Shown here: positions 1,253 through 31,104 of the stretch, one piece after another
How positions within the stretch are numbered: position 1 is the stretch's first letter
How the letters are laid out: the number at the start of each line of letters is the position of its first letter
Source: Trichlorobacter lovleyi SZ
GTDB lineage: Bacteria; Desulfobacterota; Desulfuromonadia; Geobacterales; Pseudopelobacteraceae
Assembly (NCBI RefSeq): GCF_000020385.1
Contig: NC_010814.1
Span: 60,001 to 92,000 of the forward strand
Reading direction: 5' to 3'
Length of the DNA: 32,000 bases
Program-made: the position numbers and the translations under genes
Notes under the pieces: generated by a model
Seen by the model: the letters and a program-made list of their open reading frames with translations, nothing else
Database searches by the model: none
Told to the model about the DNA's origin: nothing

Positions 1253-1376
1253 GTTTAACGGGTTGCCGCTGAGCCGCGAGCGGTGTTGCTAGGCTAACCT
1301 GCCAACGGACGACCGAGAAACAGGTGAAATGCAGCGCACAGTACGCCGGTCCGAGTTGATTGAGCCGTTAGGGATT
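1253..1376 (-). repeat. Possible attC-like junction downstream of hicB (inverse-core-like CCCTAAC ... CCCGTTAAAC)
   Basis: Read on the minus strand, CCAATCCCTAACGG (rc of 1365-1378) begins 19-23 nt after the hicB stop. CCCGTTAAAC (rc of 1253-1262) lies just before the tag RBS. Only TAACGG/CCGTTA pair clearly and the internal pairing is poor. Confidence 0.3.
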
Positions 1377-2035: not shown

Positions 2036-2093
2036 CCCTAACGGGGCTGAGGCTGACCGGCATGTTTTAGGCCGGTCTTGGCGCAGGTTGGAC
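2036..2093 (-). repeat. 58-bp attC/59-be-like imperfect palindrome (element B) downstream of the AbiGi-like gene
   Basis: The minus strand reads GTCCAAC-ctgcgccaa-GACCGGC-ctaaaacat-GCCGGTC-agcctcag-CCCCGTTAGGG. GTCCAAC fits RYYYAAC exactly and starts 12 nt after the AbiGi stop. The 7-bp stem is 2055-2061/2071-2077. Confidence 0.55.
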
Positions 2094-2104
2094 AACATTC
2101 TTTT

Positions 2105-2902
2105 TTAAAAGTCTTTTCTTATTTGTTCCATCGTAATGATTCTAGTTGTTAATAAATCAATATCATCTTTGGAATATTTTGCTTTTATATATCTGAGCTT
2201 TTTTATAAAGTCTAAGACTTCTGTCTCACTGTCTAGGATGATATATTTTATGTCGCTTGGGGAAAATGATAGTTTGAATTGTTGTAGCTTTGTATTGTTA
2301 TAGTTTCGTATATCGTCGGCAGTAAATTCTTCTTTAGTCAATGAAGGTTTAAACTTATATTGCAGCATAGAATCAAGAGATGGTACATATCTCCACTCCC
2401 TTTCATCGTAAAACCTTACACCATCAACATATTTACCATTTCTCCACAGGGTTCCTTCATAAGGCTTGGACATAAATAAAAACAGTTCTAAATAAACCGC
2501 AATAAAGTCAAGAGTGGCTGGTTTTATTGAATTTAAATCTATGAGCTTACCAACGCTTTCATGATAGCTACCACGTAAATAGCCAGCAGTGGTGGCTTTT
2601 TCATAGGTATACAAAACAGGCGATATGCCTTTTGACTTCCCCCAATCTTTACTCAATCCAATGGCATAATTACCATAATTCTTTGCATGATTTCGTATGC
2701 TTGACAGTGGAATATCACAAAAACATACCATTGGTATTGCTCTTTCGCATAAATGAGGCAGACGATTGTGTTTAGAATTGAACATGGAATGATCTTCTAA
2801 GCAATATCGCGGATAAAACTCATTTACAAGTATACTCTCAAGGATTGATAAGCTGCTTGTGTAATGAAATAAGGTATCTGCACTTATAGGATTATAGTCC
2901 AT
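2105..2902 (-). CDS. AbiGi-family abortive-infection protein (solo, no AbiGii partner)
   Basis: 265 aa. N-terminus ...ADTLFHYTSSLSILESILVNEFYPRYCLED..., plus CFCDIPLS and YDEREWRY motifs as I recall for the AbiGi family. Very AT-rich (about 30-35% GC by eye) against about 60% in the flanks. Confidence 0.7.
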   Translation of the reverse strand: MDYNPISADTLFHYTSSLSILESILVNEFYPRYCLEDHSMFNSKHNRLPHLCERAIPMVCFCDIPLSSIRNHAKNYGNYAIGLSKDWGKSKGISPVLYTYEKATTAGYLRGSYHESVGKLIDLNSIKPATLDFIAVYLELFLFMSKPYEGTLWRNGKYVDGVRFYDEREWRYVPSLDSMLQYKFKPSLTKEEFTADDIRNYNNTKLQQFKLSFSPSDIKYIILDSETEVLDFIKKLRYIKAKYSKDDIDLLTTRIITMEQIRKDF

Positions 2903-2991
2903 TGGTAACCCACATAAATATTGATGATATTTTTGTATAATTTCGAAAAAGCAGTTTTATCAGTTGTTCAACTCGTTAATCTGCGGTTTCC

Positions 2992-3019
2992 CGATATGCG
3001 TAACTTGTTACCTATATCG
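2992..3019. repeat. 28-bp imperfect palindrome CGATAT-gc-GTAAC-tt-GTTAC-ct-ATATCG upstream of the AbiGi unit
   Basis: Read directly from the sequence. It lies 19 nt beyond the GTTCAAC box (2966-2972), the same relative position as the GC palindromes at the other two cargo genes. Confidence 0.4.
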
Positions 3020-3331
3020 GCTACTTGTTCCTCATATAAGTAACCACCCAGCCAGCTCAAAAATCCATCAGCGCTGCAAATATTCAATCGCAGAATCAGC
3101 GGGTTATCCGTGTTTATGTAAATTGTCAATTCAATTTACAATTTGCACAACAGGGTCAACTGCCGGTAAAAAAGTGAGAAAAACAGGGGTACCACACGTC
3201 TTTATCGAGGTTGTGCATCCCATTGATTCTACTCCCAGGTCTGGAACAGAGCTTCTCGGTTCAAAACCGCTCAGCCTTCATTCATCGGGGCAGAAACCGT
3301 ACTGGTAATCACTGGGGCACACTGCACAAAC

Positions 3332-3763
3332 CTAATCCGTGATTTCCACGTAGCCCCACCATTGGTCTGTGGTGGTGAATATGTTGCATTTGATGTTGGG
3401 CGGACAGGTACTGGTGGAAAATCTTACCGCAGGGGCAGAGGATTGCGTGCCTCCAAAGTAACGGCAGGTGCACTCGGGTGCCGTGCCGTGTTTAAACTTG
3501 AATGTGCCATTGCACATACCGGCAGTGGTCGTAAATTTAGTGTTTGCCTGACTGTTGGGGGGGATCGTGCAGGGGCCGTTTTCGCTGGTACATGCGCCAG
3601 TGAACCATACATTGCCATGACCGGCATCCACGGTAATAGTTACGGGCTGGCTTGAGCTGTTTTTAACCGCACGATTCCAGCTTTCACCCCAGGCATTGGA
3701 GAAGCTGATAAAGAAAAGGCTTAAAAACAGAAGCACTGTCCGCCGTTGCCATTGTGTATTCAT
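3332..3763 (-). CDS. Secreted Cys-rich small protein (143 aa) if translated from the internal ATG
   Basis: The ATG at 3763-3761 is preceded by AAGGAG (rc of 3772-3777) at 8-nt spacing. The N-terminus MNTQWQRRTVLLFLSLFFISFSNAWG is a classical Sec signal peptide. The mature part has 7 Cys and no family I recognise. Confidence 0.55.
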   Translation of the reverse strand: MNTQWQRRTVLLFLSLFFISFSNAWGESWNRAVKNSSSQPVTITVDAGHGNVWFTGACTSENGPCTIPPNSQANTKFTTTAGMCNGTFKFKHGTAPECTCRYFGGTQSSAPAVRFSTSTCPPNIKCNIFTTTDQWWGYVEITD

Positions 3764-5194
3764 CTTTAGATCTCCTTGCTGTATGGGATAACGAGCGACT
3801 GCTGAGATTCCACCTCTTGCATTGGCGTGTGAAATCTCCAGGTCATTGACCTGAACAAAGGCCGGTACCACGATCGCAGTGGGGTTACGGGCGCCATAAC
3901 TACTGGAGGTGTTACTGACGACCTGGGTTTGGGAGAGCCAGGCCAGCCTGTTACCAAATATATCCAGCAGGCTTTGGGTGATGCGCACATTGTAGGGCAC
4001 GACCACGGAGCCCTCTTTGGTGAGCAGCAACGCGCCAAAGCGCGAACTGGCCGTGATCAGCCCTGTGGAGGGGTTGACGATATTCAGGTAATGCAAGGAG
4101 GGAATGTACAGCAGGTCATTGCTGTGGGGCAGGTCAACCAGTTCTTTGAGCGTGCTGACCTGCGTGTTACCACCGGCCAGTACAAGGCTCTTGTGCATGA
4201 CCGTGTGCCCGGTGGGTGCGGTGCCAAACTCATCCGCATCATCCTGGGACCAGGTGAATGACCGGAACACCCCGTTGGCAAAGATCGGGAACGGTTTGCG
4301 CGGCATGCCCATGAAATCGCGCTGAAACGGGAATGTGTCCAGACAGGTGGGATCATCGCTCAGGGTAAACCGGCTTGATAAAACCTTTTGGCCGACCTGA
4401 TCCCCGGTTATGAAGGAAAACCCGCGTTTCATGGAGCCGCCGTCAAAACCGATGAAGTTCATAATGTCAATCAGTTCCGCAATGGCAGCAGAGCCGAACA
4501 CGACATCATACCTGCCCAGCGCTAGCTGACAGGGCGTATCCTGTTGGTACTGCTCCAGCAGGAAGGCCAGGTCACGGTGCAGCGCGGACGGGTCCAGGTC
4601 AGTTATTTGCCGGGCCGACTGCTCGGCCAGCAGTTCCCATTTGCGGGTGGCATGCGACAGGACAATGCTGATCTGCGCATCCGTGGTCTTGAAATACTGG
4701 CAGTGTTCCGAACGGGTGGTGATCTGCGCAAGGGTGGTCACACCAGTGGAAAAAATCCCGGAAAGCGTGATCTCATCCGCTTCAAGTCCTGCCACAGCCT
4801 GATTGAAAAACTCCAGGCGTGCCGCATTGGTGATCCCGGCCAGGCCGGCATCAAAGCCGCTTTCATCAATAAATGTTTCTGAAAAGGCCGGCATGGTGGG
4901 CTGGTAGTCCAGCGCCTGAGCATGCTTGACCATCTCTGCAGCACGATCCACCCCCTGCCTCATCTCCGCCATATTGCCCAAGGCGGTGATCAGTTCAAAG
5001 CTGGCCCGTTTGCGCCCTTCATAGGCGGTGATCTCCAGACGCAGAAGATGTTCGTTGGTGTTGAGCGAAATGGCCGAGTTGGCGCACCGCATCAGACAGC
5101 TCTCTTCCTCGTGCAGGAAGAACGCGGCATCAATCTGTTTTGCAAGCGCATAGGTGCGCAGGTCGTGCAAGGTTTGCAGAATCTGTTCCTTCAC
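3332..5194 (-). CDS. PmbA/TldE-family metallopeptidase-like protein whose ORF lacks a stop and continues in frame into a signal-peptide/Cys-rich module
   Basis: 620-aa ORF. GTG start at 5194 lies 2 nt after the tldD stop, with AGGAGAG upstream. Residues 1 to about 459 look like the TldD/PmbA family without HExxxH. An 18-aa linker (RGGISAVARYPIQQGDLK) and the module below follow. Confidence 0.8.
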   Translation of the reverse strand: MKEQILQTLHDLRTYALAKQIDAAFFLHEEESCLMRCANSAISLNTNEHLLRLEITAYEGRKRASFELITALGNMAEMRQGVDRAAEMVKHAQALDYQPTMPAFSETFIDESGFDAGLAGITNAARLEFFNQAVAGLEADEITLSGIFSTGVTTLAQITTRSEHCQYFKTTDAQISIVLSHATRKWELLAEQSARQITDLDPSALHRDLAFLLEQYQQDTPCQLALGRYDVVFGSAAIAELIDIMNFIGFDGGSMKRGFSFITGDQVGQKVLSSRFTLSDDPTCLDTFPFQRDFMGMPRKPFPIFANGVFRSFTWSQDDADEFGTAPTGHTVMHKSLVLAGGNTQVSTLKELVDLPHSNDLLYIPSLHYLNIVNPSTGLITASSRFGALLLTKEGSVVVPYNVRITQSLLDIFGNRLAWLSQTQVVSNTSSSYGARNPTAIVVPAFVQVNDLEISHANARGGISAVARYPIQQGDLKMNTQWQRRTVLLFLSLFFISFSNAWGESWNRAVKNSSSQPVTITVDAGHGNVWFTGACTSENGPCTIPPNSQANTKFTTTAGMCNGTFKFKHGTAPECTCRYFGGTQSSAPAVRFSTSTCPPNIKCNIFTTTDQWWGYVEITD

Positions 5195-5196
5195 CG

Positions 5197-6651
5197 CTAC
5201 TCTCCTATGGTCACCTGGTCAAAACGGCAGACCGGCACGCCATGCCCCAACTGCATGATCTGATTGGGTTGACCCTTGCCGCAGTTATTCACACTGAGCA
5301 GCTCCCAGGTGGAGCGGTCCCCCACGGCTGAAAGCGCATTGTAGAACGGGATAGTCTCCCCCCGGTAGGTGGCGTTCTTGACAACCCGGGTAATTGCGCC
5401 ATCTTCCACCAGCCAGCCGATATCAACCGCAAAATGGAACTGCTCACGGTTGGAGCCGATGGACCAGCTCTTGTCGCCATCCAGGATGATCCCTTTTTCA
5501 GTGTTCCTGACGATCTCATCCAGCGAACCATCAGTGCCAGGGTCGATGTTGATGTTGGTCATACGCTCGATCGGCGCCCGGTAAAAGGCAGTGGCACGGT
5601 TGGCGCCGCCGCTGCCCTTGAAGATGGTTTTTCCGGCGCGGGCGTTGGCCTCAGCCACCATCTGGCGCCCGGTAATAGCGCCCACCAGCAGGCCCTGGTC
5701 AATCAGCAGGTTGTCCTGTGCCGGCACGCCATCATCATCATAACCAAAACTGCCGGGGGAGTTGGGAAGCGTGGCATCGGCGCGGGCGGTCAACTTGGGG
5801 GAACCGTATTGCAGCGTGCCAAAATCTTCCAACCTGACGAACGAGCCGCCCGCATAGGCCAGCTCATAGCCCAGGATGCGGTCCAGTTCCAGCGCATGGC
5901 CGATGGTTTCGTGGGTTTGCAGGTACATGATGCCGGGCAACAGGATGACGGAACGTACGTCCGTGGGGCAGGTCTCCGCCACCCGCACCGCATTCATCTC
6001 CTGCACGATCCGCTCGGCCTGCTCGTTGAACAAGGCCGGATCAATGGTTTCCCAACCACGGGTCGTGCTGTCGAGCGTGGGGTGGAACGTCCGTGCATGG
6101 GTCTCTCCGTGGCTGTCCAGCCCCATGACCTGCATCGAGGGAAACACCTCGATAATGCGCTTCTCGATCTCGCTTCCCTCGGAATCCAGGTACACGATCT
6201 GCTTGCGCGTGAAACTCAGCTCACAGACTCGCTGGCTGACGCCCGGCTGGTTCAGACGGTCGTCCAACGCCTTCATGAACCCTACCTTGTCTGCCAGCGG
6301 GATGGAAAACGGGTCAATCCGGTTCGGGCTGGAGAAGGTACCCTGCACAGGTGCCTTATCTGCCAGGTGAACCGGAAAGGTACACCGCTGCGCTGCCACA
6401 CGGGCGTTATCCAGGGCTTTGTCAAAAAGCGCGCTGAGGTTGCCCGCATCAGACGAGGCAGAAAACCCCCACGCCCCCTGGTACAAGACACGGATACCCA
6501 CCCCGCTCTCGCGGGATGCGGCAGCATTCTTCAAATTGCCATTCCATATCATCAGATGCTCGGTTTCTTCAACCGGATACCAGCGTGCATCAACGTAGGA
6601 CGCACCCGCTGTCTTCAGCCGTTCGATCTGCTCTTGTAATTGCTTACGCAT
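5197..6651 (-). CDS. tldD: TldD-family zinc metalloprotease
   Basis: 484 aa with the HETIGHALELD (HExxxH) motif and a TldD-like overall pattern. AAGGAAGGA lies upstream of the ATG. It is translationally coupled to the PmbA-like gene. Confidence 0.9.
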   Translation of the reverse strand: MRKQLQEQIERLKTAGASYVDARWYPVEETEHLMIWNGNLKNAAASRESGVGIRVLYQGAWGFSASSDAGNLSALFDKALDNARVAAQRCTFPVHLADKAPVQGTFSSPNRIDPFSIPLADKVGFMKALDDRLNQPGVSQRVCELSFTRKQIVYLDSEGSEIEKRIIEVFPSMQVMGLDSHGETHARTFHPTLDSTTRGWETIDPALFNEQAERIVQEMNAVRVAETCPTDVRSVILLPGIMYLQTHETIGHALELDRILGYELAYAGGSFVRLEDFGTLQYGSPKLTARADATLPNSPGSFGYDDDGVPAQDNLLIDQGLLVGAITGRQMVAEANARAGKTIFKGSGGANRATAFYRAPIERMTNINIDPGTDGSLDEIVRNTEKGIILDGDKSWSIGSNREQFHFAVDIGWLVEDGAITRVVKNATYRGETIPFYNALSAVGDRSTWELLSVNNCGKGQPNQIMQLGHGVPVCRFDQVTIGE

Positions 6652-6710
6652 TGTTCCTTCCTTGGCACCTGCTTGGTCTGTTACTGCCTGGTTGGCAATA
6701 ATCCTTAGAG

Positions 6711-7340
6711 CTACAGATGCCGGGTATCGGAGCGAATCGGAGTGACGCCATCTGCCGAATCCAGGGTAATAGGTATATCCGGCAGATTTTGGTAAACTTC
6801 CTCCACCGTGGCATAACGGGTCAGTACCTGCAGCACCTGCGGCAGCGGTGAGAGCAATACCTCCAGCAGATCAGCTTCATCCGGCTGATCAGGATGAAAG
6901 GCCAGCTGTTCTTTTGGCGGGCAGAACTGGGCATCCACCCCCGGCTTGTTGCCGCGCGCATCGATCCGGTACCAGCCATGACCCTCCAGCCAGACCGCGT
7001 TCAGGCCATGCAGGCAAAAAGGGGCGCCGTTGCCTGTCTTGGACAGGCGCTGGTAACACAGCCCGGCCGGGATGCCGTTGGCCCGCAGCAGGGCTGCCAG
7101 CAGATGGCTCTTGGCATAGCAGTAACCGGTGCCATACTCCAACACATCCGAGGCCACGCAGGTGACCGGATTCTGACGGTAATCCCAACTGTGCCTGATC
7201 TGGTCCCGCACAAACTCGAAACAGCGCCGGGCGATCTCTGTCTTGTCTGTTGATCCTGCGGACAGCAGTTTGGCCTTGACCAGTATGGCCGGATGCTGCC
7301 AGTTGATCCAGCTGCTCTGCTCAAGATACTTTTTCATCAT
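6711..7340 (-). CDS. Transglutaminase-like cysteine peptidase family protein
   Basis: Cys-His-Asp core: GTGYCYAKSHLLAALLRANGIPAGL, HGLNAVWLEGHGWYRIDAR. I prefer the start at MMKKY (7340, AAGGAA upstream) to the track's 7373. Confidence 0.85.
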   Translation of the reverse strand: MMKKYLEQSSWINWQHPAILVKAKLLSAGSTDKTEIARRCFEFVRDQIRHSWDYRQNPVTCVASDVLEYGTGYCYAKSHLLAALLRANGIPAGLCYQRLSKTGNGAPFCLHGLNAVWLEGHGWYRIDARGNKPGVDAQFCPPKEQLAFHPDQPDEADLLEVLLSPLPQVLQVLTRYATVEEVYQNLPDIPITLDSADGVTPIRSDTRHL

Positions 7341-7384
7341 GTCGGTTCCTTGGTGATGCAAATATACACACAATACGTTGCTTT

Positions 7385-8578
7385 TTATGCAGGGCAGCCC
7401 ATTTCAGCGCCTGCAACAAACACCTGATCAAGCAGCCTCAGGCAGGTATCCACCTCATCCGCGCTTACATTCAGGGCCGGCATGAAGCGCAGGGTATCGG
7501 GCCGGGCGGCATTGATAATCAGGCCAAGCTCACGGGCGGCCTCGGTAACGGCATCCCCGTTATTGGCCGGAAGTGCCAGGGCCTGCAGCAGTCCGCTGCC
7601 CCGAACCTCGCCCAGGCCATGCCGTGTGGAGAGCTTCCGCAGCCCATTGGCCAGCTGCACCCCTCTCTCACGGACCTGTTCCAGAAAACCGGGCTGCAGC
7701 ATGGCTTCCAGCACAGCACAGCCAACCGCAGCCATCAGCGGATTACCATTGTAGGTGCCGCCCTGGTCACCCGGTTCAAAACAGCAGACCGCCTCCTTGG
7801 CCAGCAGGGCAGCCAAAGGGACCCCGCCGCCGATCCCCTTGCCCAGGCTCATGATATCCGGCTCTACTCCGGCCTGCTGGTATGCAAACAGTGAGCCGAG
7901 CCGCCCCATGCCGGTCTGGACCTCATCAAAGATCAGCAGCAGCTGGTGCTGATCAGCCAACTGCCGCAGACCCTGCAGAAAGAGTTGACTGGCCGGGATC
8001 ACCCCGGCCTCGCCCTGCACCGGTTCCAGCATGATCGCCACCGTACGCTCTGAAATGGCCGCTGTTACCGCCTCAAGGTCATTCAGTCCTACCTTGATGA
8101 AGCCGGGCACCTTGGGCTCGAACAGCCCCTGCCAGTGCGGCTTGCCCGAGGCGGACATGGTTGCCAGGGTACGGCCATGGAAGCCGTTGACCATGGTGAT
8201 GATCTCATAGGCGCCCTGCTTGTGCAGGCTGCCCCACTTGCGCGCCAGCTTGATGGCCCCTTCATTGGCCTCTGCCCCGCTGTTGGCAAAAAAGACCCGC
8301 TCAAAGCAGCTGTTGGCGGTCAGCAGGTCAGCCAGCCGGATGGCAGGCTGATTGTAAAAGGCCGGGCTGGGGCTGATCAACTGAGCTGCCTGCTGGCTGA
8401 GGGCCTGCGTGATCACGGCTGGCGCATGCCCCAGGCAGTTGACTGCCCAGCCCTGGATAAAATCCAGGTAGCGCTTGCCATTGCTGTCTGTCAGCCACGA
8501 GCCCTGGCCTGCCACCATTACAATCGGTGGCCGTTTGGTGATGGTCATCAACGAATCAAATGCGCTGCTTTCAGACAT
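7385..8578 (-). CDS. argD: Class-III PLP aminotransferase, acetylornithine aminotransferase-like
   Basis: Motifs [30 protein letters not shown] and SLGKGIGGG (PLP lysine). Start placed at MSESS (8578) behind GGAGGAGG. The track's 45-aa N-terminal extension to 8713 crosses a terminator hairpin. The symbol is tentative because this may be a paralogue. Confidence 0.85.
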
Positions 8579-8614
8579 GGTTCCTCCTCCTTGCTGTGCC
8601 GTCTGTGGAGGGGG

Positions 8615-8649
8615 AAATAAAAAAGCCCGCCTCCATGGGAGACGGGCTT
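8615..8649 (-). terminator. Rho-independent terminator-like hairpin just upstream of the aminotransferase RBS
   Basis: The minus-strand RNA reads AAGCCCGUCUCC-CAU-GGAGGCGGGCUU followed by UUUUAUUU. The single mismatch is G-U only on the minus-strand transcript, so it is strand-specific. Confidence 0.7.
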
Positions 8650-8847
8650 GGGTAATTGGCTGTGATGAATTAAACGGACGTACCTTACTCCATTGCACCG
8701 TGCATGGTGACACCTCTGTGCGCTATGAAGGAGTGACGTCGGATCATGGTCAAGAGCTTGCCTCAAAATTCGCAGCCCTGTCAATTGTTTTCAAGATTCT
8801 TTGGCAGATCAATCACGGTTACCCCTGCAACCGTAGCAAGCCATGTG

Positions 8848-8919
8848 CGATAACGGGGCTCGGCATGACCTGCGCGGCAAGTTCTTTTTGCCGCGTCAGC
8901 GTCTATGCCGGTGTTGGAA
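8848..8919 (-). repeat. 72-bp attC/59-be-like imperfect palindrome (element D) downstream of the TIR gene
   Basis: The minus strand reads TTCCAAC-ac-CGGCAT-agacgctga-CGCGGCAA-aaagaac-TTGCCGCG-caggtc-ATGCCG-agCCCCGTTATCG. There are two paired segments with asymmetric internal bulges. The TTCCAAC box begins 13 nt after the TIR stop. Confidence 0.6.
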
Positions 8920-8931
8920 ATCTAATTCATG

Positions 8932-10086
8932 TCATAAGTTATAAGAGGCTACCGCGTGTAGATGAGGTCCGTCTTCCCTGAGATAAGACAATAACTCATA
9001 AAATGACACATCTACGCTCCATCGCCCCATGGCATAACCACTGACTTGACCTGTTGGAAAGAGGAATGTGAAGCGGTCTGCGCTGACAGTGTATGTTTTG
9101 AAATGACTAGCATCTTCACCAGCACCGTTTTTAAATGATTCGATCTGAAAATCACTCGGTGTCTCTCCAGTTCGGTGCCAGTACTCTTTCGATAGCTCAT
9201 GGATGCATATTTCACTTATCCTTTTGATAGCACCTTGAGAATCTGAAAAGAAATCGGTTAGTTCAAGCTTGCGCACTTTGTCGACGTACTCAAAATTATA
9301 TGTTACGTAATAATAATTGGGGTGGGCCGCACCTGCATAGTACAGCCCAACATCATATGTGAGACTCAGGAATCGGTCAGTGGCATGGACAATCGCGAAA
9401 TTTTCCCAACAGCCATTTACCGCAGCAGCCCCTCTGGTTTTAAAAAATTCAGGCTCCTGTTCCCATGGCTTCTGCCTTGCGTCGATCAGGTCCGCGTATG
9501 CTCTCCCTACGAACAGGGCAGACAGTTCTTTAGCGACATCGGGCTTTGATGTGGACTGAAATCTTGGATACTCGATCTCGATATTGTGACCAGGCAAACC
9601 GTCCCAGTTATCTTCTATTCTTTCCGTAAAGACATTGAAAGGACCTGCAACTACACCATGTTCCAATTCGATTGATTGCTGCTCAGATGCCAGTCTGAGT
9701 GCTGCCTTGACCTGATCCCAAGCGCCTGGAACATTAAGGTCAACGTATTGTAGCCGAGCAGCTATGTGAGTCGGTACCTCGCAAGGCTCAAGCAGCAGCG
9801 GTATTACGTAAATATCTGTAAGTTGCTTATATCTTAGGCGTTCTATCGCATCATTAGCTTCTCTCTGCACAAAGCCTCGCTTTGTCACGCTTCGCTTGCT
9901 GAGCAAAAGCACTACTACATTTGCATCGCTAAAAGCCCGCTCTATTTCCGCTTCCCAGTTCTGGCCTGGCAATAGGTGCTTAGAATCAACCCACGGGGAA
10001 ACTCCCTCTTTAGCCAGAAGTTCATAATAGTGCTCGGCACTTTCGCGGTCCTCCTTGGCATAGCTAATAAAGACTTTCAGAGCCAC
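8932..10086 (-). CDS. TIR-domain protein fused to an RsiV/PdaC-like DUF4163-DUF3298 domain
   Basis: GTG start with GGAG 5 nt upstream. N-terminal TIR pattern: KVFISYAKEDRE.A......L...GV.PWVD......G..W...I..A....NVVVLLLSKRSV.....VQRE. The C-terminal part shows IEIEYPRF.S......ELS, YYAGAAHPNYYYVTYNF....K..EL.DFF and FLFPTGQVSGYAMGRWSVDVSFYEL, matching my memory of DUF4163/DUF3298. About 45% GC. Confidence 0.75.
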   Translation of the reverse strand: MALKVFISYAKEDRESAEHYYELLAKEGVSPWVDSKHLLPGQNWEAEIERAFSDANVVVLLLSKRSVTKRGFVQREANDAIERLRYKQLTDIYVIPLLLEPCEVPTHIAARLQYVDLNVPGAWDQVKAALRLASEQQSIELEHGVVAGPFNVFTERIEDNWDGLPGHNIEIEYPRFQSTSKPDVAKELSALFVGRAYADLIDARQKPWEQEPEFFKTRGAAAVNGCWENFAIVHATDRFLSLTYDVGLYYAGAAHPNYYYVTYNFEYVDKVRKLELTDFFSDSQGAIKRISEICIHELSKEYWHRTGETPSDFQIESFKNGAGEDASHFKTYTVSADRFTFLFPTGQVSGYAMGRWSVDVSFYELLSYLREDGPHLHAVASYNL

Positions 10087-10111
10087 ATTATCTCCATTTA
10101 TTACTTTTGTT

Positions 10112-10180
10112 TTCCAACTTGCTATTCACCGGTTCACGCGCGCGCGTGAACCGGTGAACCTCCCAAACGGAATATTTATC
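10112..10180. repeat. Conserved junction repeat, copy 1, containing a perfect 34-bp GC palindrome
   Basis: TTCCAAC-ttgctat-TTCACCGGTTCACGCGCGCGCGTGAACCGGTGAA-cctCCCAAACGGAATATTTATC. The segment 10125-10158 is its own reverse complement. It lies between the PIN stop and the TIR start and aligns with 31015-31087. Confidence 0.85.
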
Positions 10181-10592
10181 CCGCTGCTGCAAAATATCCT
10201 TCTGCCGTGACCACACGGATGCTGCTCTTACGGTAATGCCGGACATTACGGGTGATCAGCCCGGAGCAGCGTGCGCTGAGTGCGCAAAAATACTGCAGCG
10301 CATCTTCAAAGTCGGTAAACCCGGCATGCAGGGCCTGCTCAACAATGGTATCATCCACCGCAACCACACTGACCAACTGTTTGAAGGTGCGCAGCACTTG
10401 TTGGGCCTGCGGGCCAGAGTGCTGCTTTCTCAGCAGATAGAACAGATTGGCAAAGGTAAGTGAAGAAACGCACAAAGTCAGGTTGCCTGCCTCTGCCTCT
10501 GAAAAAAGCCGCGCAGCAGCGTCATAAAACGGCTCACGCCGCGCAAGCAGATCAAGCACAACATCCGTATCAACGAACAGATACGGCTTCAT
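10176..10592 (-). CDS. PIN-domain toxin (VapC-like)
   Basis: 138 aa with N-terminal FVDTDVVLDLL, acidic residues spaced as in PIN domains, and ...DFEDALQ.... It overlaps the upstream antitoxin gene by 4 nt. Confidence 0.85.
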   Translation of the reverse strand: MKPYLFVDTDVVLDLLARREPFYDAAARLFSEAEAGNLTLCVSSLTFANLFYLLRKQHSGPQAQQVLRTFKQLVSVVAVDDTIVEQALHAGFTDFEDALQYFCALSARCSGLITRNVRHYRKSSIRVVTAEGYFAAAG

Positions 10593-10834
10593 CGGTATTT
10601 ATCCGCCAGATAATCGGTATAGTCCCGCTTGTAATCTTTGACTTTGGCAGCATCAAGTACGCCGGAAAGCTGGGCCACCAGTGGCGTTACCGGCCTGGTC
10701 TGCTCTTTGGGCGCAGAAACCTGCCGCAGGTAGCCTTCAATCAGCTTTGAAAGGCTCTGGTGCTGCGATTGGGCAAAGCGTTTGGCCTGTTCAATTACAT
10801 CGTGATCAAGGCTTAAGGTAAGTTTTGTGTTCAT
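10589..10834 (-). CDS. DUF6364-type antitoxin partner of the PIN toxin
   Basis: 81 aa. MNTKLTLSLDHDVIEQAKRFAQSQHQSLSKLIEGYL matches the pattern I recall for DUF6364 antitoxins. AAGGAG lies upstream of the ATG. Confidence 0.75.
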   Translation of the reverse strand: MNTKLTLSLDHDVIEQAKRFAQSQHQSLSKLIEGYLRQVSAPKEQTRPVTPLVAQLSGVLDAAKVKDYKRDYTDYLADKYR

Positions 10835-20161: not shown

Positions 20162-20635
20162 TTAGCGGTTGTTGCGCTGCTCGTAAAAAGCCTTTTCAAA
20201 GGTTGTGACCGTGGTCAGATCTTCGAGACGGCTGATCGTGACAATCACGGGGCGGCCGGTATCATCATCCTTTCCTTCCAGACGCAGGTAGGCGCCCTTT
20301 TCCTCCAGTGCCCTGAAGCCGTGCTGCTTCAGTCTGGCCAGCGTTGCTGTCGCTGTATTTCCCTTGAAGACCAGTGCAGTGCCTGCCAGGGCACGCTCAT
20401 GCTCATAGAACAGCCCGACGCTCAGCAGCGGGGCTGCGTCGTGTATCTGGTACAGCTCAACGGCCAGCCCTTCCAGCTCGGCCACCTTGTCAGGCGCCCC
20501 CAGGATGGCGACCACCTTTGTCTTAGGCATCAGCACGCTGACCCGGTCCAACGCGGCAAGTTCAATGGCAAAGGAGGCGGTTGTGCCGATAAGCAGCACC
20601 ATGCCGGAAAAGAGTAGGGTTAGACAGGCTTTCAT
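20162..20635 (-). CDS. Secreted hypothetical protein
   Basis: 157 aa with signal peptide MKACLTLLFSGMVLLIGTTASFA and AGGGAGA RBS. No family recognised. Confidence 0.6.
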   Translation of the reverse strand: MKACLTLLFSGMVLLIGTTASFAIELAALDRVSVLMPKTKVVAILGAPDKVAELEGLAVELYQIHDAAPLLSVGLFYEHERALAGTALVFKGNTATATLARLKQHGFRALEEKGAYLRLEGKDDDTGRPVIVTISRLEDLTTVTTFEKAFYEQRNNR

Positions 20636-29986: not shown

Positions 29987-30062
29987 GGGTAACGGGGTGC
30001 CCGGTTGACCTGCCGGGGGCGGTCTTTATGCCCCCGGTCACGGTCTGACCGGCTTGTTGGGA
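29987..30062 (-). repeat. 76-bp attC/59-be-like imperfect palindrome (element E) downstream of the 290-aa gene
   Basis: The minus strand reads TCCCAAC-aagccggtcagaccgtga-CCGGGGGC-ataaagacc-GCCCCCGG-caggtcaaccgggcaCCCCGTTACCC. The perfect 8-bp inner stem is 30013-30020/30030-30037, and the outer GACCGG/CCGGT(T)GACC pairing has bulges. Confidence 0.55.
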
Positions 30063-30118
30063 TGTCTCTTAAGTTCCATTTTCAAGGTCTGCCCCCTCAT
30101 CTTGTTCTTCCAAGAGAG

Positions 30119-30991
30119 TTAACAATCAGTTACGACATGTTCTTGTATTTCCTCAATTGCATTTCTTGGGTTGTAAATTTCCGAATTAAATGGCCATAGA
30201 GGGTGCATCAGGGGAAATCTTGATATGTTGATTTGGGAAGGGTAGGAAGCACTTCTGAATGAAAGGTGGTTGTCGTACTGAGCTGACAAATAGTATCCTT
30301 CGTGCCCTTTCATCGCAGCAGCCTGGATATTCCCACCGACAAGTAAGTTTTGAGGATCCTCGATTTCTCTTCTTATTGCTCTTACACAAGCAATTTCCAA
30401 TGCAGTCTCGATCGGCATTCGTGGCTTACAAATCAATAACTTATTAACCTCACATAGAATAATACCCTTTATTTCGTTTTTTCTATCGCCAATAACTCCG
30501 AAATAGACACCGTGTTCATTCGGAACTTCCTCTAACGGGTATACTTCTCTAGGAGTTCCAATTTTTTCAAAAATCCTGGTTCGTCCTGAGTCATCTGCAA
30601 GCATAAATAAGTATTCAATTTCTTTGTCATAAGCAGTCCGCCAGAAGTTGTCTATAGTTTCGTCTATTATTTCGATCAGTTGATCAAATTTTGCTCCACC
30701 AAGCAATCCGATTATGACAGCTTCTAAATGTATTATGCTTTGAAGTCCAAGGGAGACTGCTCCTGCAACAGATGCAACAATGTCTCGGCGACCTCGTTTT
30801 CTATCCGACTTCATGACGTGCAGTTTGATTCCAAAATCATTTTGATGACATATTTCTGTATCTGATGGGATGTTGACAAAACCATTCTCGACATTCTTAT
30901 TCCTCACTACTGTCAGTCTTGAATCTGAGAGTGCCATGGCTTGATCATATGCTTCTCTATTAAAATGTCTGTATGAAATACAAAGCGTCAT
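30119..30991 (-). CDS. Hypothetical protein, possibly an HslV/proteasome-beta-like Ntn hydrolase (by-eye similarity only)
   Basis: 290 aa, about 40% GC. MTLCISYRH...AMALSDSRLT...IVASVAGAVSLGL...YLFMLADDSGRTRIF...VYFGVIGDRKNEIKG...EDPQNLLVGGNIQAAAM loosely parallels blocks of E. coli HslV and 20S beta subunits recalled from memory. The SD is weak. Confidence 0.6.
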   Translation of the reverse strand: MTLCISYRHFNREAYDQAMALSDSRLTVVRNKNVENGFVNIPSDTEICHQNDFGIKLHVMKSDRKRGRRDIVASVAGAVSLGLQSIIHLEAVIIGLLGGAKFDQLIEIIDETIDNFWRTAYDKEIEYLFMLADDSGRTRIFEKIGTPREVYPLEEVPNEHGVYFGVIGDRKNEIKGIILCEVNKLLICKPRMPIETALEIACVRAIRREIEDPQNLLVGGNIQAAAMKGHEGYYLSAQYDNHLSFRSASYPSQINISRFPLMHPLWPFNSEIYNPRNAIEEIQEHVVTDC

Positions 30992-31014
30992 AGTATTGTC
31001 GAGTTCCCTGAAGT

Positions 31015-31087
31015 GACCAACTAGTTATTGACCGGTTAACGCGCGCACGCGCGTGAACCGGTGATCTACCCAAATGGAATGTTTATC
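31015..31087. repeat. Conserved junction repeat, copy 2 (imperfect 34-bp GC palindrome)
   Basis: GACCAAC-tagttatt-GACCGGTTAACGCGCGCACGCGCGTGAACCGGTG-atctaCCCAAATGGAATGTTTATC. It aligns along its length with 10112-10180, with one 4-nt indel and a few substitutions. It lies between the Fic stop and the 290-aa gene start. Confidence 0.85.
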
Positions 31088-31104
31088 AATTGCGCCAGCC
31101 AGTG

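Follow-up and report, generated by a model that had tools for sequence, protein, structure and literature searches.

A probable integron-type cassette carrying a TIR-domain gene and a divergent attC-like hairpin in Trichlorobacter lovleyi SZ

Integron cassettes, such as those of class 1 integrons and of the sedentary array of Vibrio cholerae, combine one promoterless gene with an imperfect hairpin of 57-141 nt, the attC site, which reads ...AAC - bulged stem - GTT. They have lately been recognised as reservoirs of anti-phage genes, and phage-defence genes occur in them (Kieffer et al., bioRxiv 10.1101/2024.07.02.601719; PMC12614218). Cassettes may also lie far from any integrase gene; IntegronFinder defines a cluster of attC sites lacking integron integrases (CALIN) by at least two attC sites within 4 kb and no integrase nearby. 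Here we analysed 32,000 nucleotides of Trichlorobacter lovleyi SZ (assembly GCF_000020385.1, contig NC_010814.1, positions 60,001 to 92,000), referred to below as the window and numbered from its first base. We consider it highly probable that positions 8854-10117 of the minus strand are an integron-type cassette, in which a TIR-domain gene lacking a promoter precedes an attC-like recombination hairpin of its own, designated D. The kind of element is known; this cassette, and the attC sub-family to which D belongs, are new.

Boundaries of the TIR cassette and cargo exchange between strains

The features on which the argument depends are listed below; a slash marks the point at which homology breaks or strands would be exchanged.

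8854..10117, minus strand: probable TIR gene cassette, 1264 bp, 46.7% GC; opens with the leader TTGGAAAAC..., continues with the gene and the hairpin, and has as its last base the G of the 3' core
8932..10086, minus strand: TIR gene, 384 aa, N-terminal TIR and C-terminal RsiV/DUF3298-like domain; GTG start, GGAGA ribosome-binding site
8848..8920, minus strand: attC-like site D, with inverse core TTTCCAAC (8920-8913), AC, an imperfect 20-bp stem (8910-8861), AGCCCC and the core G/TTATCG (8854-8848)
10111..10118, minus strand: left junction; G (10118) closes the upstream site P and TTGGAAA (10117-10111) opens the cassette, complementary to the inverse core at 8913-8920
10112..10194, minus strand: site P1, about 83 nt, with a perfect 34-nt palindrome (10125-10158); ends ...AATAGCAA-GTT and overlaps the vapC stop codon; nhmmer E 5e-22
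10176..10834, minus strand: vapBC-type toxin-antitoxin pair resident upstream of P, with a DUF6364 antitoxin (10589-10834) and a PIN toxin (10176-10592), both by Pfam
8623..8649, minus strand: intrinsic terminator downstream of the slot, about 200 nt past the hairpin, in the conserved flank; kept in the related loci L110, L111 and L115

A sequence-only reading of the window had proposed a unit at 8854-10117, bounded by perfect 8-bp inverted repeats around a low-GC gene. The two 8-mers are where it placed them (GTTGGAAA at 8913-8920 and TTTCCAAC at 10111-10118, plus strand), and the contrast in composition holds, the unit having 46.7% GC, its flanking genes 59.9% and 64.0%, and the window as a whole 56.2%. 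Its distances from repeat to gene, 13 nt from the stop and 26 nt from the start, had to be corrected to 11 nt past the TGA and 24 nt ahead of the GTG. The cassette is thus made up of a 31-nt leader, the 384-aa gene and the 73-nt hairpin (8848-8920).

We then compared the slot with its counterparts in related Trichlorobacter strains and assemblies, which were found through near-identical vapB proteins. The flanks were identical and the cargo differed, as given here on the gene strand.

SZ: left P...AATAGCAA-G/TTGGAAAAC; cargo the TIR gene; right TTTCCAAC-stem-AGCCCC-G/TTATCGCACATGGCTTGC
L110: left P...AATAAGA-G/TTGAACATATCC; cargo a 206-aa open reading frame (ORF); right GACCCAAC-...-CAGCCCC-G/TTATCGCACATGGCTTGC
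L111 and L115: P cut in the middle of the palindrome; cargo other DNA; right GCCTAAC-stem-GCACCCC-G/TTATCGCACATGGCTTAC
L099 (CP058409): left P...AATAACGA-G/TTATGCTGAG; cargo a phosphatidylserine decarboxylase gene with its own hairpin, G/TTAGGC, then a 102-aa ORF

Four different cargoes therefore occupy one slot. The right flank is constant in SZ, L110, L111 and L115, the left site in SZ, L110 and L099, and the vapBC pair is present in every strain locus compared for the region. Inserts open directly after the G/TT of P in SZ, L110 and L099, between-strain homology breaking directly past the GTT of P, and each insert ends in a hairpin of its own, ...CCCC-G/TTATCGCACATGG (TTAGGC in L099), with the same architecture and a different stem sequence. 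The G/TT breakpoints fall at 8854/8853 and 10118/10117; the right one was read from L110, L111 and L099, the left one from L136 and L099. Both ends of the proposed unit were thus confirmed to the base against other strains and against a second copy elsewhere. An empty-site search of the genome collection, with the neighbouring aminotransferase as query, returned distant relatives only, at 67% identity or less.

The L111 and L115 loci were found to differ in one respect. There (L111 7690-8100, and L115) P is cut at ...GACCGGTTCA/ATCGC... and is followed by unrelated DNA with a 65-aa ORF on the opposite strand. Their insert still ends in a D-type hairpin at the usual right flank, and simple G/TT exchange does not explain this event.

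The second copy lies in L136-138, so that the TIR gene and its 3' element, which the earlier reading had proposed to look for in another context, do occur in one, with discrete, base-exact boundaries. The protein encoded there is 93% identical (P0001) and the leader is kept as G/TTGGAAAACAAAACTTATAAATGGAGATAATGTG; the cassette is preceded by the hairpin of another cassette (TGCCCAAC-AAG-stem-GCACACC-G) and not by P. Because the TIR cassette stands here behind a D-type site without P, P is not the left end of the cassette. A related cassette, with an 85%-identical gene, follows a further P copy in L139, where the surroundings are unrelated. P0009 (L015), a homologue of 68% identity, has a canonical attC site on either side; GTTGGGCGTC marks the start of its cassette, and the inverse core contains GACGCCCAAC. 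Other homologues are found outside cassettes, for example on an element bearing TrwC, so the gene family travels by several routes. In L136 (1826-1927) and L137, the hairpin of the second TIR cassette copy is decaying: its inverse core is mutated (TTTCCTTC), and AGGTCACAATG is duplicated in tandem, in a copy number that varies from sample to sample.

These comparisons bear on the possibility that the slot is a defence hot spot varying by homologous recombination only, with P and TTATCGCACATGG... as its flanks and the hairpin as a terminator or a transcript stabiliser resembling repetitive extragenic palindromic (REP) elements. The flanks conserved in SZ, L110, L111 and L115 could drive allelic exchange, and the hairpin begins just 11 nt past the stop codon. 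Yet the alternative inserts each bring their own hairpin with a different stem sequence, the same cassette occurs in unrelated flanks with a break exactly at GTT, and the complementarity between cassette start and inverse core, described below, would be left unexplained. A role of D as the terminator of the gene was ruled out, as it has no T-run and the genuine terminator follows 200 nt on, at 8623-8649. We therefore regard recombination between flanks alone as a very improbable account of the locus.

The 8-bp repeat was examined separately. The pair that the sequence-only reading saw as bounding the unit is present, but the gene itself contains a third GTTGGAAA, at 9053, and the count alone is not significant, with at least three copies of the 8-mer in 13/100 shuffles of the window. 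In addition, a 2.3-kb region holds 66 inverted-repeat pairs, of which this is one. Taken alone, these figures would allow for coincidence, with a gene acquired horizontally that just happens to have a stable hairpin and an 8-bp inverted repeat around it; we find this hardly credible, as independent homology breakpoints fall on exactly the same bases as both ends and the same rule recurs in 19 cassettes. The first bases of the TIR cassette complement its own inverse core at 8/8 positions, and those of a second cassette in the window, the AbiGi cassette, at 7/8. In 12 contigs bearing P, we set the eight bases that follow the G of P against the inverse core in the next hairpin downstream and found them complementary at 8/8 positions in six contigs and at 7/8 in two; this comparison took cassettes of up to 1.1 kb, and the set of 19 consists of these together with the window and strain loci. 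Across the 19 cassettes, the five variable start positions complement the cassette's own inverse core in 68/95 cells, a value equalled in 0/20000 permutations, and complementarity is perfect in 8/19. The 8-bp repeat is thus an instance of a family rule by which a cassette opens with bases complementary to the inverse core of its own hairpin. This is what exchange at G/TT and circularisation predict, since the opening TTRRRY half-core pairs with the cassette's own inverse core in the circle.

Hairpin D and the recombinase

The stem of D (8861-8910) folded as DNA at -23.7 kcal/mol (z -4.65), and 0/200 shuffles were as stable. Folded as the junction of a circle, the site formed an 8-bp R helix, a 2x6 internal loop and a bulged stem at -24.8 kcal/mol (z -7.3). 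D had earlier been described as two helices separated by asymmetric bulges of 6 versus 9 nt. The hairpin is real, but the segments taken for bulges pair with each other (GAC/GTC, CTG/CAG), leaving three single-base bulges on one arm (T8896, C8900 and T8904, which are A, G and A on the 5' arm of the minus, coding, strand). In D, in site E of another cassette in the window, and in L111, L099 and L136, the bulges are all on the 5' arm of the coding strand, the same polarity as in the class 1 attC sites of aadA, catB3 and aacA4. Among five well-folded family members, 96.5% of the cells were paired and 7/17 pairs showed compensatory double changes, which 0/500 shuffles equalled; the structure was derived from the same five sequences, and slid controls gave 26-42%.

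The 22 best family members yield the consensus YYCCYAAC-CAG-CCGGTT-[G]-GAC-[R]-CCG...CGG-GTC-AACCGG-GCACCCC-GTTRRRY, which holds an inner GTT+bulge...AAC pair resembling the L box of attC. The AAC and GTT triplets show no variation in the alignment of five sites and reach 90% conservation or more among the 22 best members; across the family, the 3' cores are mostly GTTRRRY. D itself reads TTCCAAC...GTTATCG in the array and would present GTTGGAA in its circular form, so that the purine/pyrimidine flanks fit in part.

To score these sites we used two covariance models. R1, a small model built from 7 canonical attC sites, recovered held-out attC sites (lnuF, E 3e-5; arr-3, 2e-4; IMP-1, 0.015) and matched the two attC sites around P0009 at 2e-17 and 2e-14, both of which are training sequences. 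Its best match in the window, 20546-20626, was judged spurious, as it lies within a signal-peptide coding region. R2, a model of the D-type hairpin, gave 1.5e-17 for D and 9.2e-18 for E, both among its training sequences, and a weak match (E 0.53) at site B of the AbiGi cassette. Rfam gave no match at the gathering threshold anywhere in the window and, at E up to 5, none of relevance in 8780-10260. The attC-like character first ascribed to D thus stands as regards the AAC...GTT cores, the L-box-like pair of the family consensus, the one-arm bulges and the length of 73 nt, but not as regards a score by R1. Since the structure is attC-like and R1 gives no score, we file D as a member of a divergent attC sub-family; the blindness of R1 to it is likely due to geometry, the 3' spacer being 9-10 nt instead of 6. 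Sites of such a sub-family can go unseen by a model whose training set is canonical, a detection gap that bears on how well cassette surveys cover genomes of the Deltaproteobacteria type.

Several points weigh against assigning the unit to the integron cassettes. GTTATCG and TTCCAAC fit GTTRRRY and RYYYAAC in the GTT and AAC triplets only. The 3' spacer, from the inner helix to the GTT, measures 9-10 nt compared with 6 in canonical sites, and the bulged bases are A/G instead of C/A on the coding strand. R1 gives no match at D, B or E in the window (E up to 10, filters off), and R2 gives none on class 1 attC arrays. The upstream element P has no bulges and no AAC inverse core (GGGAAG where CCCAAC is expected), and is neither a standard attC nor a known attI. 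A circular intermediate has not been observed, and a tblastn search of the window and of 246 loci with IntI1 found no IntI. The single match of that search, in L187, was set aside as a generic phage-type integrase fragment, 27% identical and without integron-specific features.

A published survey reports at least two intI genes for G. lovleyi (PMC2426708); the genome paper mentions neither integrons nor these repeats (PMC3403914). Because the integrase of the species rests on that survey and none is local, it is by inference that we name IntI as the recombinase of these units. The plus strand of D in the window would fold, and its bulges and AAC/GTT cores would present the hairpin to an IntI encoded elsewhere in the T. 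lovleyi genome. Strand exchange between G and TT would then excise the unit as a circle, in which the circle core GTTGGAAA would pair with the inverse core TTTCCAAC, and it is for this reason that the linear cassette would carry an 8-bp inverted repeat. The circle could re-insert at another GTT core, the acceptor in this case being P behind vapBC, and the cassette would be transcribed by read-through from vapBC up to the operon terminator.

The same observations could be read as a hairpin-dependent unit moved by something other than IntI, either a single-strand transposase of the IS200/IS605 type acting in trans on a palindrome-associated passenger, or another tyrosine recombinase using P and D-type hairpins. 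The silence of the canonical model R1 at D would fit such a mover, as would the perfect palindrome of P with neither bulges nor an AAC core, the lack of an IntI near any of about 100 P contigs, and the tiny, scattered arrays in place of one large array. Nevertheless, crossover takes place at GTT in sites that read ...AAC-stem-...GTTRRRY, the complementarity of cassette start and own inverse core is the signature of G/TT exchange and circularisation, and the bulges have the polarity of attC. Moreover, a homologous gene sits in a canonical cassette, the TIR cassette is also found behind a D-type site where P cannot serve as its left end, and neither an HUH transposase gene nor a conserved target tetranucleotide was seen. 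Taken together, these data make a non-IntI mover improbable in our view and favour an integron-type cassette.

The TIR protein, element P and the other cassettes of the window

Two Pfam families, TIR_2 (E 1.8e-24) and DUF3298 (E 4.3e-9), were recognised in the TIR gene product. In its AlphaFold model (predicted local distance difference test score, pLDDT, 76), a TIR fold at the N-terminus is followed by a C-terminal domain. The TIR part has structural matches to SPARTA, Toll-like receptor and plant TIRs, and the C-terminal domain resembles structures of the lysozyme-binding anti-sigma factor RsiV and of DUF3298, namely 5jen_A (TM 0.70), 3cyg and 3s5t (TM about 0.7). In 12 homologues of 60-72% identity, E76 (motif GFVQRE) is invariant; homologues in this range are found in Methyloversatilis, Burkholderia, Pseudomonas, Azonexus and others. 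The database holds 371 relatives with the TIR and RsiV/DUF3298 architecture (E <= 1e-5), the best 120 of which (P0001-P0120) are 60-93% identical; they come from Beta-, Gamma- and Deltaproteobacteria, and many lie on very short contigs, as is typical for repeat-flanked cassettes. The slot of SZ holds an uncharacterised TIR and RsiV-like protein, conserved at 60-93% in many Proteobacteria. PADLOC covers the TIR part only, with no model for the full-length architecture, and DUF3298 and "TIR domain" are not mentioned together in the searchable literature; as a defence system, the architecture appears to be undescribed. Most likely the protein provides, on its own, defence by abortive infection; its RsiV-like part, as a sensor, would control a TIR NAD+-hydrolase with the glutamate E76 as the catalytic residue. 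A separate idea is that the RsiV-like domain might sense phage lysozyme or endolysin and thereby switch on the putative TIR NADase.

No convincing promoter was found for the TIR gene, which has a leader of 31 nt. Gene and hairpin have the same orientation. With vapC-P ahead of it and the terminator behind it, the cassette is probably reached by transcripts that start at the vapBC promoter and read through, vapBC being their likely source.

Element P is the least explained part of the locus. The consensus of 82 distinct copies reads CACAGGATAAATGTTCCATTTGGGAAGATC-ACCGGTTCACGCGC(0-4)GCGCGTGAACCGGT-SAATAACGA-GTTRRRY. Its palindrome is perfect over 28-34 nt, its end reads AAC-NN-GTTRRRY, and its stem shares a core with some D-type stems (CCGGTT-CAC...GTG-AACCGG). 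Scanning metagenomes with the palindrome returned 107 contigs (L140-L246), in which the flanks of P diverge on both sides; P was absent from viral contigs, plasmids and Rfam. In the P contigs of clear orientation, R2 detected 27 further D-type sites, of which 27/27 lie downstream of P on the same strand; the contigs had been chosen by P alone, and 162 kb upstream and 194 kb downstream of P were sampled. The genes upstream of P were labelled by eye from their translations, without a Pfam check, as PIN toxins, Fic, RelE-like, HipA-like and UbiX-, TauE- and xanthine-dehydrogenase-like. Eight upstream ORFs end 20 nt ahead of the palindrome, at the TAA of GGATAAAT, a position that was sequence-checked for the vapC-type copies only. 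We found no gene in conserved divergent orientation beside P, as intI stands beside attI. P as an ordinary attC was rejected, as cassette starts complementary to its GGATAAAT were not enriched upstream of P (12 matches, compared with 11 in the control). Short-read assemblies of the species break inside P.

P behaves as the array-proximal acceptor, that is, as the upstream recombination partner. Its AAC-NN-GTTRRRY end resembles the inverted L/R simple site of attI1. A further proposal, put forward tentatively and which we think somewhat doubtful, is that P might be a portable, integrase-independent landing pad: a bulge-less derivative of a local attC that keeps the GTTRRRY core and, at the 3' end of a gene taken as expressed (often toxin-antitoxin or Fic), plays the role of attI and promoter for a distant IntI acting in trans. 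It would thereby seed "satellite integrons" of one or two cassettes of defence genes on chromosomes of the Desulfuromonadales type. If P were such a dispersed attI-like docking site, integron function would be split between one integrase and many remote insertion points that provide a promoter.

The genes of the window (ACD93799 to ACD93829) are mostly ordinary chromosomal genes. Three low-GC islands stand among them, each with one minus-strand gene and, on the gene strand, YYCCAAC - stem-loop - CCCC-GTTA. Besides the TIR cassette these involve the following features.

2042..2971, minus strand: putative AbiGi cassette; gene 2105-2902, short attC-like site B 2036-2094; start GTTGAACA against inverse core TGTCCAAC, 7/8; 34.8% GC
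29993..31020, minus strand: putative third cassette, behind Fic-P2; 290-aa gene Glov_0092 (30119-30991), attC-like site E 29987-30063; 41.9% GC
31015..31093, minus strand: site P2, a second P copy behind a Fic-family gene; ends ...AATAACTA-GTT/GGTCAC; nhmmer 3.5e-23

The product of Glov_0092 has no Pfam or PADLOC match, and we regard the gene as a candidate defence gene; the neighbouring cargo of the cassettes is mostly without known function. No AbiGii partner was seen beside the AbiGi gene. The left junction of the AbiGi cassette, ...ATTAACGAG/TTGAACA, shares the 3' motif of P and adjoins a different small palindrome (about 2996-3025). A long attC-like "P-prime" upstream of AbiGi (2965-3112) was discarded, as it folds no better than shuffles (z -0.75) and shares only ...TAACGAG/TTGAAC with P. 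A weak attC-like site, A (1253-1295, minus strand), reads CCTAGCAAC-AC-stem-GCAACCC-GTTAAAC; it follows hicAB, is conserved in CP058409 and scores marginally with both R1 and R2 (E 4.4 and 1.7). It may be the decayed terminal site of the variable region.

Next to the TIR slot, a minus-strand block at 3332-8713 encodes an aminotransferase, a transglutaminase-like protein and two TldD/PmbA-like proteins. The block has about 60% GC and looks like housekeeping DNA, and is absent from CP058409 (L099), where two small cassettes alone separate vapBC-P from hicAB; in L110, L111 and L115 it has an extra 615-aa gene with Ig-like features. It may be an accessory peptide-maturation module. The ORF called mechanically at 7385-8713 (442 aa) overruns the terminator at 8623-8649; as the gene calls on related contigs give 392-397 aa, its true start lies near 8578.

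Comparison with known systems

Palindrome-associated passengers of the IS200/IS605 type resemble the locus in having hairpins at both ends of a passenger gene and in the single-strand folding that these imply. Unlike them, the units described here have no left-end and right-end hairpin pair in common, no transposase and no conserved target tetranucleotide, and the left hairpin belongs to the neighbouring unit.

As an acceptor, P recalls attI and attG, cassettes being joined right after its G. It differs from attI in not lying beside an integrase gene and in holding a perfect palindrome of 28-34 nt that is homologous to the D-type stem. Loot et al., in a preprint on cassette insertion into genomes at attG, reportedly describe attG sites as loosely defined, whereas P is highly conserved in more than 100 contexts.

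The CALIN and single-attC (SALIN) loci of IntegronFinder also hold cassettes with attC-like sites far from an integrase, in genomes of which this one reportedly encodes an IntI. Unlike CALINs, whose definition includes no such site, each mini-array here starts at the conserved, non-attC element P behind an expressed gene. The sites are 1.2 kb (D to P1), 0.75 kb (B to the weak site A) and 1 kb (E to P2) apart, and P is not a standard attC, so each locus could be a SALIN, depending on whether P is counted.

The locus is closest to the integron cassettes themselves. It shares with them the single promoterless gene with an imperfect hairpin, the G/TT crossover, the start that complements its own inverse core, a stem whose structure is kept while its sequence varies, toxin-antitoxin genes in the array and cargo that is mostly without known function. 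It differs in the 3' spacer and bulge bases noted above and in the blindness of the small canonical model to its site; in addition, the T. lovleyi arrays hold only one or two cassettes, among ordinary chromosomal genes and with no integrase nearby. With the defence-gene cassettes it has in common a small, single-gene candidate defence system, the TIR effector, carried as a cassette, with AbiGi in a neighbouring one; unlike them, its TIR and RsiV/DUF3298 architecture lacks a full-length PADLOC model and its defence role is putative. With one slot that holds a different cassette in each strain, the locus offers a clean natural example from outside the usual Vibrio, Pseudomonas and clinical integrons.

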